A stretch of DNA of 21,214 nucleotides. It comes from an uncultured archaeon. GTDB lineage: Archaea > Thermoplasmatota > Penumbrarchaeia > JASLWR01. The notes under the pieces were generated by a model that did no database searches, had not been told where the DNA came from, and worked only from the letters and a program-made list of their open reading frames with translations. The position numbers were made by a program, and so were the translations under genes. The stretch lies in the NCBI GenBank assembly GCA_964342815.1, contig CAYFHS010000020.1, positions 16,580 through 37,793 on the forward strand. Reading direction: 5' to 3'. This document shows positions 11,295-16,122 of this stretch, one piece after another; positions within the stretch are counted from its first letter, which is position 1; the number at the start of each line of letters is the position of its first letter.

Positions 11295-14200
11295 TTACAA
11301 CATGGTCTTGCAATTGGGGCAGATGAACCAACCTGGTTTAGTTTCACTGCCGCACCCAGGACATTTCTTACCAGGGGTTCCCGCTTGCTGAGGAACCGAT
11401 TGAGTTGTTGGAGAAGTAACCGGTCGGGTCACCGGTTGAGTTGTTGGAGCAGTAACCGGTCGTGTTACCGGTTGAGTTGTTGGAGCAGTAACCGGTCGTG
11501 TTACCGGTTGAGTTGTTGGAGCAGTAACCGGTCGGATCACCGGTTGTGTTGTAGGCGAAACTGGACGGGTTACCGGTTGAGTAACAGGGGAGGTGAGAGG
11601 TTTGATAACCGGTTGTGTTACCGGTGCCGTTGTGGGTGGGCTTGTGGTCACGGGACTCGTAAAGGGTCTTGACACGGGTTGGCTAGTGGTGACCTGTGTA
11701 GAGGGTGGTTGTGTTACAGGGGCTGCCGTGGGATGGGTCGGTGGCGCTTTAATGGGTTGCGCAGGTTGAGAGTAGGAAGGGCCCGGGGTGGCTTGAGGGG
11801 CGCCGTACCCCTGTGCCACCGAAGAATAGTAACCCTGACCGCCAGGAGAATAGTCCTGTTTCCCCACACCACCTGCTACGTACATAACGTTATCCTTTGA
11901 CTGTCCTTCGATCTCTGCCAGCGATTTTATTTTTTTCTTTTCCTGTATTACGGTCTTCCTTTTTGCCACTTCACTCCTTTTCGCTATCTTGTTCTTCACT
12001 TTGGTGTTCTTCTTGATCATCAGGAATATCATTACCCCAAATATTAATATCAGAGCAATGAACAGAATGTCCCCCTGGGAGAAGATTTCAAAAGGAAGGT
12101 TATAATCGAAAAACCAACCTTTTTCTTCCGGTGGCGGAGGTACATATATTATCTTTATTATGATCTCATTATCCACAGTGGTCCCGCTTGTATAACCGCG
12201 GTCGTCCTTTACCTTCAGTTCAACTTTGTACTCGTGATAATCATCGCCATCATCGACCTTGAAATCTGCGAATGAATAGGTCTTTTTGAGTCCGGCGTCC
12301 ACGTTATCCAATTCTTTTTTATCAGCCATGTCAGTTACGATCCAATAGTAATTGGTTATCACAACCCCTGCATCGGGAACATTTGATCCGCTGGCATCAA
12401 AAAATATCTCCATTATGTTATTCTCATCTTCTTTCTCAATTATGTATTTTCCTTCTCCTTCGTCCCAGAAATCCCCCAGGTCGATCCCATCAATTTTTGA
12501 AATCACTGCCTTGGGATTCGATTCCAGATATATCGTTATCGGTATTGTGTGAATTTCGAAGTGATCGCTGTCTGATGTATTAAGGCTGAGAGTTCCTCTG
12601 CTGTCTCCAATGTCCACGGACATTATGTAATCCCCAACCTGGAAAAGGCTGTATCTCAAGTCCCAGTTTACCGTCCAGGTTCTGTTATCCCGGTCAATGA
12701 TCGTATTTTTCGAATCCGAGATCAGCGGTTCGGTTACCGTTTTACCGGCCTCCGAAGGGACCAATCTCACCCATACATTTCCGGGTGTGATGCTGTCTTC
12801 ATCGATATCGAAGAAGCTGCCCTCCAATACAATTCTCTTTTCTTTGATGGGAGGAAGTGTGATAGTTATTCCATCATCGCTGTCGACCTCCTCACCATCG
12901 ATCTTCATTATCATGCCGTATGGAGGATTATTGACACTGCCCTGTTTGATCATGGGGGTAATATTGGTTTCAGTTGTGAATCCGTGGCCCTCGAATGCGG
13001 CAAATCTCAACAGTATCTCTTCATTGTCGTAAAAATAATTGATTTTCGTTTTATCGCCTGTTCCCGACTTGGATTTGGAAGCAGTTTCGAACCTGTAACT
13101 CCAGCTGCTCCAGCTCCTTTCGGATCCGCTGCTTATATCATCAACCTCAATTTCACCAGCCCCGTCCACTGAAACCACTATCTTTGTTATTTCCTGAGTG
13201 CTGCTGAATATCTGCGCAGTTCCGTTTATGTAGATTATTCCACCCAGGGCCTGATTCCCATTAATAACGTCATTTTTGTTTACGTGTACCTGCTCGTCAT
13301 CACCAACGAGTACGCTTCTGTAGGAAATCGAGGATATGCCGAGTGTTAGTATCTTGAGTATCATGGCGGCCTTATTGTCAGGGACTCCAATGTGAGGATC
13401 CTCTACCAGATTTAAACTTTGGGTTAAAGGAACCTGTTTCTCAGCCTTATAGGTGTGTTTCATGGCATGTATTCTCACAGTCAGGTCTTTGCCAAGGTTA
13501 TTACCTTTTATTGTTCTTGATAATATACCTTCGAAAAACGCATAACCGTACTGATTCGTATCAGCGCTTGAAAGCATCTCCCACACGTCGCTATCGTCCT
13601 TTGCTCTGATCTCCACTTCCGCCCCTTGAATTCCTGCTTTAGTATGGTCATCCACCACCTTCACCAATATGTCCCAGTATACTTCTATCACGGATTCAAT
13701 GATGCTGTAGGGCCTTACGGGACCCTCCCTGTCGGATATTGAAACGTTATCCAGAATATTTGTATTGGCTGGACAGTCGATACCGAATGAATCTGCCGAT
13801 GTCCGTATTGTGGAATCCGATCCTTCTATGGAGTTATACAGTGCCTTTAATCTAAGTTTGTCTCCACCGAAATAACCGTCCATGTTCCGATCGCCCCCCA
13901 GGCCCAGGTCTCCGCCAAGAGAATAAATGAAACAATGGTCGAATGTAACGGACGTGTAAGCGGAGATCCTGATATTGGACTCTCCACCCCATCCTCCTTT
14001 ACCGTATAACTCATCACCGCTGGTTCTGGATGCGTCTCCCCCTCCACCGGCCATGGCGATAAAATCAGAGTTTCTCAAGGTTATGGAGCCTTTCGATTCT
14101 ATTGTCACAATACCCTTGCCGCCGACTCCACCGTCACCGCCTTTGGCATTGGAAATAGTCGGTGCTCTTTCACCCCCCTCTCCTCCGTCGCCACCACTTG

Positions 14201-14930
14201 CTTTTAGGATGCAGTCATCAGTAATATCGACTTTGGCGGATTCGATATATATCTCCGCTTCCCCACCTTTTCCTCCGTGCCCGCCATTCATTTTCTTATC
14301 GTCAATTCCAGCAGCCCCCGTTCCGCCTGTCTTTCCATAGCAGTATATCTCTGAGTTCTTGATATTAACTGGTTGGGTTGTGATTATTTCAACCACTGAA
14401 TCATTACCCGGTCTACCGTCGAGTTTCGCGCCTGTACTGCCAGGTTGTCCGGCTTCTCCCCCGGTAACGTTTACCACGGTAATTGTGGAGTCTTCCATTC
14501 TAAACTCCTTGCACCTTGCCGAGAAATTCCCCTTTTCGATATATATTTCGCTACCCATCAATATATGAATTGTTCCTCTATCGGATATGTTGAATTCTCC
14601 CTGATGTCCGTCCTCCCCCTGGGACAAATTAAGCTTACAACCCTGCAGTATCAATGATGCGTCTTCCTGTACCCATATGCCTGTATAGTCGCCGGAATCG
14701 GTAAATCCCAGGGTTTTCTGGGTACCTTTATCCACCTGTAGATATCCATGATTTGTTCCATTTGCCCTTTGATCTTCTATGGGATTATTATCGGTTTCAG
14801 CCTTGAGCGTCTTGGCTTCTTCCCCTGCCTTATGATCGGGCGTTATTGATATATTTCCTACAACCGTTAATTGGAATATTAAAAATCCGATAATCAATAT
14901 AGAAAAAATTGAACGCAATCGTTTTTTCAT
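11295..14930 (-). CDS. Large single-pass membrane protein: signal peptide, Gly-rich solenoid repeats, Ig-like/PKD-like domains, TM helix, Pro/Thr tandem repeat, C-terminal Zn ribbon; alternative start 14954
   Basis: GGTGA 5 nt before ATG 14930 (ATG 14954 overlaps the upstream stop as TAATG). Five GGxGGxGG-type blocks; VKVVD...GAEVEI...TNQYGYA beta-sandwich motif; TM ILFIALILIFGVMIFLMI; terminal CPGC-x10-CPNC. Confidence 0.85.
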   Translation of the reverse strand: MKKRLRSIFSILIIGFLIFQLTVVGNISITPDHKAGEEAKTLKAETDNNPIEDQRANGTNHGYLQVDKGTQKTLGFTDSGDYTGIWVQEDASLILQGCKLNLSQGEDGHQGEFNISDRGTIHILMGSEIYIEKGNFSARCKEFRMEDSTITVVNVTGGEAGQPGSTGAKLDGRPGNDSVVEIITTQPVNIKNSEIYCYGKTGGTGAAGIDDKKMNGGHGGKGGEAEIYIESAKVDITDDCILKASGGDGGEGGERAPTISNAKGGDGGVGGKGIVTIESKGSITLRNSDFIAMAGGGGDASRTSGDELYGKGGWGGESNIRISAYTSVTFDHCFIYSLGGDLGLGGDRNMDGYFGGDKLRLKALYNSIEGSDSTIRTSADSFGIDCPANTNILDNVSISDREGPVRPYSIIESVIEVYWDILVKVVDDHTKAGIQGAEVEIRAKDDSDVWEMLSSADTNQYGYAFFEGILSRTIKGNNLGKDLTVRIHAMKHTYKAEKQVPLTQSLNLVEDPHIGVPDNKAAMILKILTLGISSISYRSVLVGDDEQVHVNKNDVINGNQALGGIIYINGTAQIFSSTQEITKIVVSVDGAGEIEVDDISSGSERSWSSWSYRFETASKSKSGTGDKTKINYFYDNEEILLRFAAFEGHGFTTETNITPMIKQGSVNNPPYGMIMKIDGEEVDSDDGITITLPPIKEKRIVLEGSFFDIDEDSITPGNVWVRLVPSEAGKTVTEPLISDSKNTIIDRDNRTWTVNWDLRYSLFQVGDYIMSVDIGDSRGTLSLNTSDSDHFEIHTIPITIYLESNPKAVISKIDGIDLGDFWDEGEGKYIIEKEDENNIMEIFFDASGSNVPDAGVVITNYYWIVTDMADKKELDNVDAGLKKTYSFADFKVDDGDDYHEYKVELKVKDDRGYTSGTTVDNEIIIKIIYVPPPPEEKGWFFDYNLPFEIFSQGDILFIALILIFGVMIFLMIKKNTKVKNKIAKRSEVAKRKTVIQEKKKIKSLAEIEGQSKDNVMYVAGGVGKQDYSPGGQGYYSSVAQGYGAPQATPGPSYSQPAQPIKAPPTHPTAAPVTQPPSTQVTTSQPVSRPFTSPVTTSPPTTAPVTQPVIKPLTSPVTQPVTRPVSPTTQPVIRPVTAPTTQPVTRPVTAPTTQPVTRPVTAPTTQPVTRPVTSPTTQSVPQQAGTPGKKCPGCGSETKPGWFICPNCKTML
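11400..11543 (-). repeat. 36-bp coding tandem repeat (PVTRPVTAPTTQ), 4 near-identical units with degenerate copies to about 11620
   Basis: Units at 11400, 11436, 11472 and 11508 (+ strand TTGAGTTGTTGGAGCAGTAACCGGTCGTGTTACCGG), contiguous with no spacers. Confidence 0.95.
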
Positions 14931-14953
14931 ATTTTCACCTTTTACGAATTTCA

Positions 14954-15352
14954 TTAGTAGTCCGAGAGAAGTTTTCCTCCCGCCAGATCGAATTTCTTGC
15001 TTTTGAGCTTATCGAGATTCTGGTGATGGAGGTACCCGAAACCGCCCCAACCCAGTAACATCACCAAGGCTACAATCATGAAAACGATGGCAGTATTTAC
15101 GAAAAGTGCTAGGAACAGACCTGTTAAAAGCGTTATCGACGCTAGAAGAAAGGAGATATTCCTTATAAAAATCTCATTTTTGATGTCATCTTCCAGGTTG
15201 AAAATCTGGGCCCTTCTCATGAAATCCGTTTCCTCTTTATCCTCCTCGGCTGATGTCTTGCTGCCGCAGTAACGACAGTTAACCTCCGCCTCACCCAGGC
15301 TTTCAATAAGCTTCCCACAATTAGAACATTTGATAAGAGTAGTCTGTGCCAT
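14954..15352 (-). CDS. Small Zn-ribbon membrane protein (CSNC...CRYC plus two TM helices)
   Basis: Start moved from 15397 to 15352 (MAQTTLIKCSNCGK) because a TATA-like box lies at 15381-15388. Two hydrophobic segments in the C-terminal half; stop abuts the large membrane gene. Confidence 0.8.
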   Translation of the reverse strand: MAQTTLIKCSNCGKLIESLGEAEVNCRYCGSKTSAEEDKEETDFMRRAQIFNLEDDIKNEIFIRNISFLLASITLLTGLFLALFVNTAIVFMIVALVMLLGWGGFGYLHHQNLDKLKSKKFDLAGGKLLSDY

Positions 15353-15380
15353 TGTAATCCCCCGCCAAATTGTATTAATA

Positions 15381-15388
15381 TTATTTAA
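15381..15388 (-). promoter_or_regulatory. Putative BRE/TATA promoter for the Zn-ribbon gene cluster
   Basis: Minus strand GGAAAAC-TTAAATAA, 29 nt before ATG 15352, consistent with a nearly leaderless transcript. Confidence 0.55.
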
Positions 15389-15555
15389 GTTTTCCATGAA
15401 AGATATTTATGTATGACTAGACTATTTAATTCCCCAATTGCATAAAACGATGCCAACCGTGGTCCATGTGGATGGTACGGCACGACCGCAAACTGTGAAC
15501 CGGAGAACGAATGAAAGATACTGGCGTCTAATCTCAAAATTTGAGGAGATTACCG

Positions 15556-15982
15556 GTAAAGACTGGAACAAAGTGACTGTCTTCTTGGTAAAGACGTGCC
15601 CGCTTTGCTCCGCAACACTCTAAAGTGTTGCTGCGACTATCGGGTGGTTGCCCGATAGTCATGTGCAATACCCATGCTATTGCTGCACTCTCGGCAAGTA
15701 TGCCTACGGGTGACATAGAAACAGTTTCTATTAACCCTAATAGAATCTCCGATTCTATGTCGGGTGCCAGAATGGGTCGGCTTTACACGTAAAGTCAGGA
15801 ACATTTGGACTTACTTCTTGGTAAAGGTGTCCCGTACCGGGCCCTATTACTTGTTCAGCCAAGCCCATAGGTCTTGGCTTCTCAAGTAAGATGTGCCAGA
15901 ATGGATCGGCTTTACACGTAAAGTCAGGAACATTTGGACTGACTTCTTGGTAAAGTTGAGCCAGAATGGATCGGCTTTACAC
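15556..15982. mobile_element. Non-coding insertion of three head-to-tail units (15556-15788, 15789-15917, 15918-15982) with shared ends and variable structured cargo; family unknown
   Basis: Removing it restores ATT ACC GGA GTT CCT (ITGVP) in frame. Each unit is GTAAAG-N26-GTAAAG + cargo + G(T/A)GCCAGAATGG(A/G)TCGG-CTTTAC-AC. No target duplication beyond a single ambiguous G. Confidence 0.75.
15764..15955 (+). repeat. Two 63-bp direct repeats (15764-15826 and 15893-15955) that are right-end/left-end junctions, with half copies at 15556-15593 and 15958-15982
   Basis: The two full copies are 61/63 identical and centred on the inverted repeat CTTTAC-AC-GTAAAG. Confidence 0.95.
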
Positions 15983-16122
15983 GAGTTCCTTTTGTTTTAA
16001 ATACCTCATTCAACGTCCGTGGCGAACCAATAGTCAACCGACCTGAAGAGGCTGTAAGGTGTTTTTTAAAAACAGGGATGGATTGAGTTGCTATTGGAAA
16101 TTTCTTGCTGAAAAAAAGTTAA

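Follow-up and report, generated by a model that had tools for sequence, protein, structure and literature searches.

The closest published analogues of the repeats described here are the PATEs of haloarchaea with their nested SMR-A repeats and, in bacteria, the REP/BIME sequences. PATEs of Haloquadratum walsbyi are transposase-free, carry near-terminal palindromes and insert without target duplication; terminal-only versions of approximately 52 bp have been described, as well as core deletions with short direct repeats (Dyall-Smith et al., 2011, PMC3119063). Resident IS605-type transposons carry palindromes matching those of the PATEs, and SMR-A repeats (approx. 110 bp) insert inside the near-terminal palindromes of PATEs by a mobilisation mechanism given as unknown (PMC3119063). 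REP, BIME and REPIN sequences of Proteobacteria occur together with RAYT (Y1 HUH) transposases (PMC3337134).

The DNA analysed here, referred to as the window, is a stretch of 21,214 nt from an uncultured archaeon. Its archaeal source is evident from the diphthamide synthase and RFC small subunit encoded in it, and further genes of the window specify PKD/PPC surface proteins, a kinase-like ATPase and a C25 peptidase. A sequence-only reading of positions 15594–15892 had noted two stretches of different sequence, hereafter cargo 1 and cargo 2, and had proposed that both follow one secondary-structure plan and belong to a structured RNA or ssDNA family with expandable domains. Based on the results below, the flagged stretch probably (roughly 60%) represents the variable central part of a small mobile non-coding element, present here in two copies, with the cargos as passenger modules. 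On this reading, the cargos are selfish repetitive DNA from a family not described before, and not a new RNA gene.

A row of three repeat copies inserted into a host gene

On the + strand, positions 15438–15556 and 15984–16089 together translate into the last ~80 residues of a carbamoyltransferase. The first part (...PTVVHVDGTARPQTV...ISKFEEITG) forms the left host flank and terminates in ATTACCGG; the second part forms the right host flank. In the sister species (G001), the carbamoyltransferase gene is intact and reads GAGATCACCGGC directly followed by GTTCCAATG across the empty site. On the DNA level, the empty site consists of ATCACCGGC joined to GTTCC, and the filled site in the genome of the window (G000) consists of ATTACCGG, 427 nt and AGTTCC. 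Since the gene is uninterrupted in G001 and G000 carries 427 nt without a repeat of the target, we conclude that 15557–15983 is an insertion without target duplication. Excising it restores the frame across ...ITG, matching G001. The element boundaries were taken from this single clean empty site; in a second empty-site comparison (G000:C2 versus G001:C142), additional repeat DNA was found in G000, with flanks too diverged for exact boundaries.

The remnant in the window (15438–16089) comprises only ~80 codons and lies directly after an AT-rich spacer adjoining a divergent 147-aa gene. As the sister species retains the full-length gene (L094, G001:C149), the carbamoyltransferase would have been lost by a 5′ deletion or rearrangement besides the repeat insertion. 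Pfam searches at E ≤ 0.001 gave no match for the 147-aa protein (14954–15397, − strand) or for the adjoining 1219-aa protein (11295–14954, − strand). An intron-like reading of the arrays was rejected: once they are excised, long open frames result at few sites, these sites lie in repeat-rich DNA, and the host gene is a 5′-truncated remnant.

The inserted 427 nt consist of three head-to-tail copies of one dispersed element, 233, 129 and 65 nt in length and all on the + strand. Every copy is built from a 37-nt left end (TAAAG...GGTAAAG), a middle, and a right end of 24–26 nt (GTGCCAGAATGGRTCGGCTTTACACG). A repeat named R in the sequence-only reading was found three times and corresponds to a right end plus the left end of the next copy. 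Element 1 (15557–15789; left end, cargo 1, right end) has copies with 92–94% identity and other flanks at G000:C14 and C18, and one with 84% identity at C13. Its left end, termed variant B (15557–15593), contains hairpin 1 (HP1) at 15559–15583 and closes with GTAAAG (15588–15593), the 5′ arm of hairpin 2 (HP2), which pairs with CTTTAC at 15781–15786 in the right end (GTGCCAGAATGGGTCGGCTTTACACG, 15764–15789). Element 2 (15790–15918) is composed of the left end 15790–15826, cargo 2 at 15827–15892, and the right end 15893–15918. Element 3 (15919–15983) is the minimal 65-nt unit, in which only TTGA separates the left from the right end and two hairpins are formed. There are 35 such units in G000, and units of equal length in a species of another genus (G003).

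In the minimal unit, HP1 is formed by AAGTCAG...CTGACTT and HP2 by GTAAAG-TTGAGCCA-gaa-TGGATCGG-CTTTAC. Due to two T.G wobbles, the unit folds better on the + strand (−21.8 kcal/mol, z −4.3) than on the − strand (−15.6 kcal/mol, z −2.9), and the conservation of such wobbles hints at folding of one strand, the + strand. HP1 covaries between variants and genera (GTCAG/CTGAC, GACGG/CTGTC, GACG-A-GGC/GCCCGTC). The unit of G003 is exactly 65 nt long, with compensatory changes in both HP1 (the last of these forms) and the inner part of HP2 (CGAGCC/GGCTCG), and it retains one T.G wobble. HP2 pairing is not absolute: in the common TTGAA variant, two inner pairs are broken. In a frequent minimal unit of G000, TTGAACC...GGGACGG, the 5′ and 3′ arms of HP2 correspond to different alleles and two pairs are lost, which suggests recombination or gene conversion between units.

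The insertion point of the cargos is fixed. All of them are located between GTAAAG and GCCAG in the 5′ arm of HP2. Minimal units of the AC type read GGTAAAG-AC-GTGCC-AGAATGG, and cargo-bearing copies read ...AC-GTGCC-cargo-GTGCC-AGAATGG, so that a 5-nt GTGCC repeat borders the cargo (15596–15600 and 15764–15768 in the window). Insertion with a 5-nt duplication and repeat-mediated deletion of the cargo fit this arrangement equally well.

Within the 4.35-Mb genome of the window, 61 matches to the region were found, many of them at contig ends. Among the 55 elements with a left end, 35 are minimal, 7 medium, 4 long and 9 incomplete (most of the latter at contig ends); the middle is merely AC, TTGA or TTGAA in minimal units (65 nt), 63–69 nt in medium and 173–178 nt in long ones. 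The elements form 30 arrays, each with one, two or three units. The cargo-2 element has 10 matches in G000, nine at 98–100% identity and with flanks differing between sites, and cargo-1 elements occupy at least five sites at 84–94% identity. Thus, carrier and cargo move together, since joint copies of the two occur at many loci with other flanks. The left flanks are enriched for TTTAC, TTCAC or TTTTCA-NN-G, a loose preference from which several flanks deviate. This motif resembles the unit's own end CTTTACACG; the head-to-tail stacking would be explained by each insertion regenerating a target that resembles the end of the unit. A dimer of cargo-2 element plus minimal unit (window 15764–15983) recurs with 93% identity at G000:C1:296856-297075, and rows may therefore also be mobilised as blocks via their outermost ends.

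The distribution of the region is narrow. In BLAST searches of 40 relatives, matches were found in G001 and G003 only and none in the other 38. When 185,579 species genomes were scanned for the exact pattern, one other MAG and two matches in unrelated bacteria were returned.

Hairpin modules in the two cargos

Both cargos fold far better than dinucleotide-shuffled controls; equally good folding of shuffled controls had been named among the outcomes that would refute the sequence-only reading. Cargo 1 (167 nt) reaches −67.8 kcal/mol compared to −39.9 ± 3.8 kcal/mol for shuffled sequences (z −7.4 on the + strand, −7.2 on the − strand), and cargo 2 (66 nt) reaches z −4.0 (+) and −4.2 (−). Folding both strands, as had been suggested, therefore confirms strong structure but does not allow a choice of strand by energy, as the cargos fold equally well on either. 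The stems listed in that reading are all present at their positions, and a repeat search recovers the main ones: in cargo 1, CCCG (15599–15602) and CGGG (15707–15710), GCAACACT/AGTGTTGC, GACTATCGGG/CCCGATAGTC, GCAATA/TATTGC, GGCA/TGCC, and the arms of a 9 + 8 bp hairpin (15712–15761); in cargo 2, CCCG-TAC-CGGG (15831–15841) and a 7 + 7 bp hairpin (15847–15889). Which of these helices is maintained in related copies is a different matter.

The core of cargo 1 (15596–15712, + strand) consists of two units of a family of ~65-nt repeats, M1, at 15596–15642 and 15648–15712. They score 34.8 and 50.4 bits with the covariance model R1, which was built from an alignment (A1) of 15 simple M1 units from three genomes. 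The hairpins of this core include GCAACACT/AGTGTTGC, GACTATCGGG/CCCGATAGTC, GCAATA/TATTGC and CACTC-TC-GGCA-AGTA-TGCC-TAC-GGGTG. Building such a model had been proposed as a check. With 128 candidates scored for every genome, G000, G001 and G003 each contain at least 121 full-length hits. M1 is the most abundant module of the genome; nhmmer places 59 copies on the + strand and 53 on the − strand. G002, G016 and G030 have one hit each, and 34 other relatives have none. Metagenomic occurrences of the M1 core are confined to related archaeal contigs, and a scan of viral contigs for the core produced one chance match inside a coding region.

The M1 pattern reads GCCCG-YTnnnYTmCG, a variable hairpin, CTG, and NNYCC-TC-GGCA-NGTR-TGCC-TAC-GGRNN. 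Five of the eight pairs of helix P2 show compensatory changes, and P3 and P4 are retained between two genera with compensatory changes as well. The unpaired stretches GCCCG-CTT, CTG, and TC and TAC around GGCA-NGTR-TGCC are conserved across genera. Two G003 copies retain the insertions GACTATCGGG/CCCGATAGTC and GCAATA/TATTGC as hairpins, with compensatory exchanges of A-T to T-A and A-T to G-C, and hairpin insertions are located in loops. Because palindromic modules are nested in each other, such covariation can reflect replacement of a palindrome and not selection on the fold. A bulge-helix-bulge reading of CC-TC-GGCA..TGCC-TAC-GG was discarded on inspection of the sequence, as the two bulges do not flank the 4-bp helix on the sides that such a motif requires.

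The distal closure of cargo 1 by CCCG/CGGG fails in this comparison. Among the 15 units from three genomes, none of its four pairs shows two-sided changes, and there are four to five uncompensated breaks. In contrast, the rival local helix CACYC/GGGTG is changed on both sides in three of five pairs (A-U to G-C; C-G to U-A and U-G), and RNAalifold independently selects it over the distal pairing. The long 9 + 8 bp hairpin fares no better. It coincides with a separate module, M2 (15712–15763, + strand), which can be drawn as two adjacent 8-bp hairpins with four ATAGAAWC copies (GACATAGAAAC..GTTTCTAT TAACCC TAATAGAATC..GATTCTATGTC). M2 has independent copies elsewhere in G000 and in G001, which lie within the loops of further repeats. 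Covariation is confined to a single pair (A-U to C-G in 4 of 10 M2 copies), and this change breaks one pair in each helix of the long hairpin and preserves the two adjacent 8-bp hairpins. This evidence is limited to one event common to four related copies, but it points one way, namely to two adjacent hairpins rather than a long one.

Cargo 2 has two parts, both on the + strand. Its 5′ piece, GTGTCC-CG-TAC-CGGG-CCC (15827–15846), contains the CCCG-TAC-CGGG closure reported earlier. The letters are indeed present, but the mini-hairpin alone folds no better than chance (z −0.3 on the + strand, −0.7 on the − strand). A CCC-TAC-GGG motif recurs in relatives, and the piece is possibly the stump of an M1-type hairpin. 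The second part is the hairpin TTACTTG/CAAGTAA around AGCCAAG/CTTGGCT (15847–15889), which as a 48-nt segment reaches z −5.8 (+) and −5.4 (−). It aligns with the 3′ half of a G001 unit of a family ending in CTTTTCAAG, termed family B. Own-genome copies of cargo 2 do not vary at all, and the evidence for covariation comes from family B instead, whose inner stem occurs as CCAAG/CTTGG, CCGGG/CCCGG and CCGAG/CTCGG.

Consequently, the idea of a single plan for both cargos does not hold: their 3′ hairpins stem from unrelated families, and no helix supported by covariation is common to them. Both do begin with GTG(T)CCCG, as had been pointed out, but this is no sign of a common RNA plan, since GTGCC belongs to the carrier as the duplicated HP2 arm at the insertion point. 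The similar layout of the cargos results from the common insertion point and from strings of unrelated hairpin modules. The notion of a structured family with expandable domains survives in part. There are structure-conserved modules which tolerate inserted hairpins, but they behave as dispersed insertional DNA and not as a dedicated RNA gene.

Two of the isolated M1 hits are of note. The genome of another family (G030) contains a lone unit (L143, G030:C624, ~1500–1600) whose flanks look coding. Its outer frame TTGCACATCGATGCCCG...GACGGATGCATGGGCGGGGG matches copies in L057 (G003:C94) and in a metagenome contig of 39% GC (L123); this unit could stem from horizontal spread or be an ancestral copy. 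In L145 (G016:C11, ~1480–1720; weak R1 score of 29.5 bits), a complete tRNA is preceded by hairpins, GGTTGAGGCAGGTATGCCTCAACC among them, and further upstream by an incomplete second copy of a tRNA 5′ half, an arrangement reminiscent of a scar left by integration into a tRNA gene.

Mobilising enzymes and known repeat families

Enzyme negatives in G000 refer to an assembly which is 89% complete. Within it, no Y1_Tnp domain was found using Pfam or tblastn, and no TnpB Zn-ribbon; G002 lacks Y1_Tnp as well, and there are two full and two partial Y1_Tnp matches in G001 and one in G003. IS110 is represented by a single copy in G000 on contig C110 and is absent from G001, G002 and G003. RVT_1 occurs once in G003 and in none of G000, G001 and G002. 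Y2_Tnp has two matches in G001 (one with a stop, one partial) and none in the three other genomes. In this Pfam search, no transposase family was common to the repeat-rich genomes G000, G001 and G003. Self-BLAST of G000 detected no IS-like long repeats, only paralogous genes (WD40, FGE-sulfatase), and an inspection of genes between inverted M1 units, i.e., a RAYT-like layout, gave no candidate.

An IS200-like element was observed at L107 (G003:C1, ~1250–2150) and L108 (G001:C158). The element encodes a 163-aa Y1 transposase and is highly similar in the two genera; TTTAC closes its left flank, GCCAGCTCCTTTAGGGGCTGGTAGTTTAC forms its right end, and it is absent from G000 and G002. Its insertion takes place after TTTAC and the element itself terminates in TTTAC, a pentamer which also ends the G000 units. 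Its end hairpins differ from those of the units described here, and none of them was found in G000. The common pentamer is a hint of Y1-type chemistry, and we do not take the IS200-like element as a partner of the repeats.

The carrier resembles a terminal-only PATE, and a cargo within HP2 resembles a nested SMR-A. Like PATEs, the units have near-terminal palindromes (HP1 and HP2), are too short at 65 nt to encode a transposase, and show no target duplication when the filled site of the window is compared with the empty site in G001. In contrast to PATEs, there is no resident IS605-type transposon with related ends, neither Y1_Tnp nor TnpB having been found in G000, and the carrier is not filed as a PATE because of this lack of relation. 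PATEs have a short fixed targeting oligonucleotide 5′ of the left end; for the units, a loose preference for TTTAC/TTCAC/TTTTCA-NN-G was observed, from which a number of flanks depart. The units differ from PATEs by their short terminal inverted repeat GTAAAG/CTTTAC, the head-to-tail stacking, and nested modules bordered by a 5-nt repeat, and there is no sequence similarity to PATEs. Cargos share with SMR-A the insertion inside a near-terminal palindrome, between GTAAAG and GCCAG of HP2. SMR-A have prominent terminal inverted repeats and no target duplication; the cargos have CCCG/CGGG ends, which are not maintained by covariation, and the 5-nt GTGCC repeat borders them.

RAYT genes are typically flanked by REPs, and REP palindromes carry a conserved GTAG-type head. 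The likeness to REP/BIME consists of hundreds of short hairpin repeats which are mostly outside long open frames, lineage-restricted and clustered, and whose stems are kept by compensatory changes. The units here differ in beginning with TAAAG and having no GTAG-type head, in the absence of RAYT/Y1 from G000 (Pfam, tblastn), in head-to-tail instead of alternating orientation, and in two-hairpin modules that nest in each other.

IS200/IS605 elements move by a “peel and paste” mechanism (TnpA Y1) with subterminal hairpins, no target duplication, and insertion 3′ of a short specific sequence. The units resemble them in having hairpins near the ends, in leaving the target unduplicated, in being inserted 3′ of a short sequence, and in the TTTAC pentamer. 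However, TnpA is absent from G000, the hairpins are located at the very ends and not 10–20 nt inside, the junction is 3 nt beyond TTTAC, and the end hairpins show no relation to those of the IS200-like element in G001 and G003.

Integrons have R″/R′ core sites (RYYYAAC...GTTRRRY) and form one array beside intI. The array described here is reminiscent of them in its head-to-tail unlike units, its structured separating repeat of ~60 nt, and a fold that matters more than sequence. Yet there are ~30 dispersed loci or arrays and not one platform, the cargos are gene-free (4–170 nt), the GTTRRRY/RYYYAAC core is absent from the 63-nt repeat, and no integrase lies beside the array. MITEs of DDE transposons are characterised by terminal inverted repeats and a target-site duplication; here, the inverted repeat is only the 6-nt GTAAAG/CTTTAC, and no target site is duplicated.

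Proposed mechanism, alternatives and significance

We propose that the basic element is 65 nt long, forms two hairpins on one strand, and would insert without target duplication just 3′ of TTTAC-NN-G-like sites. As each insertion would regenerate the target, copies would pile up head to tail. The cargos would be passengers recruited from a genome-wide population of ~50–65-nt hairpin modules (M1, the M2 double hairpin and the family-B hairpin); sitting at the fixed, GTGCC-bordered point in the 5′ arm of HP2, they would then travel with the carrier. Transfer may proceed through a single-stranded DNA intermediate with HP1 and HP2 as recognition structures. This is inferred from the end hairpins, the conserved T.G wobbles, the missing duplication and the analogy to IS200/IS605, PATE and REP. 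By the same analogy, a trans-acting enzyme is assumed, for which an HUH/Y1-like activity is the best guess. Several observations count against this scheme: neither a mobilising enzyme nor IS-like long repeats were found in G000, the hairpins are unlike those of the IS200-like element, HP2 pairs are lost in the TTGAA variant, and the cargos fold equally on both strands.

A more far-reaching idea is tentative. The ~65-nt double-hairpin units (carrier, M1, family B and M2; several hundred per genome in three archaea) might form one superfamily which spreads and nests without any known transposase, recombinase or reverse-transcriptase family, be it through a new enzyme or through host-driven hairpin-primed copying. 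The unpaired M1 motifs (GCCCG-CTT, CTG, and TC/TAC around GGCA-NGTR-TGCC) might then serve as a recognition or cleavage site.

The main rival to movement as a folded single strand invokes double-stranded circles and site-specific recombination by a Xer-like or other tyrosine or serine recombinase at the palindromic junction CTTTAC-AC-GTAAAG. Integration of circles into look-alike sites would regenerate the site and yield head-to-tail rows, for which IMEX elements at dif and integron cassettes are precedents. It would fit that neighbouring units meet in an inverted repeat (CTTTAC..GTAAAG), that left flanks are similar to the right end and many right flanks begin with TAAA(G), that target duplication is absent and rows contain unlike units, and that no transposase was found in G000. 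Nevertheless, we regard it as unlikely: the elements occupy ~30 dispersed loci, many of which poorly resemble the site (e.g., left flanks ending in CCTCCCGCG or CCATTTGCCG), the half-site spacer is only 2 nt, a folded single strand accords better with the T.G wobbles and the covariation of the hairpins, and a recombinase was linked to none of the arrays examined.

Slightly more doubtful still is the view of the sequence-only reading that the cargos, or the M1 units within them, are functional structured RNAs or ssDNAs with expandable domains, so that the repeats would represent many genes. Stems covary around unpaired stretches conserved across genera, folding is very strong, and hairpin insertions fall in loops, all of which speaks for this view. 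On the other hand, a search of the whole window on both strands against Rfam returned no match at E ≤ 1, the more than 100 M1 copies are spread over both strands, units are gained and lost between sister species, cargo 2 is invariant, the two cargos have no covariation-supported helix in common, and the units appear to lack a promoter-like feature.

The reading as a retron msr-msd, as another guide RNA of a neighbouring enzyme or as an IS110/IS1111 bridge RNA, which such elements encode in their non-coding end beside the DEDD transposase, draws on a loose likeness of end pairing, stems and a long hairpin. It is largely refuted and very improbable, as G000, G001 and G002 have no RVT_1 and no reverse transcriptase is adjacent, the sole IS110 transposase lies on another contig (G000:C110) with none in the repeat-carrying G001 and G003, the window neighbours are the unrelated surface proteins, kinase-like ATPase, RFC and C25 peptidase, and Rfam contains no matching retron.

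Returning to small mobile elements with passenger modules, repeats of this kind shape intergenic DNA, break assemblies (many contig ends of G000 fall in these units) and mimic RNA genes. Once the flagged stretch is recognised as being pieced together from nested repeat modules, it is no longer mistaken for a new ribozyme, retron or guide RNA. The mobilisation of PATE/SMR-like repeats has been “enigmatic” since 2011 (PMC3119063). With exact 65-nt units, self-regenerating targets, recent bursts (98–100% identity) and no known transposase, the system is a clean archaeal case which could serve in a search for the enzyme behind PATE/SMR-like repeats.
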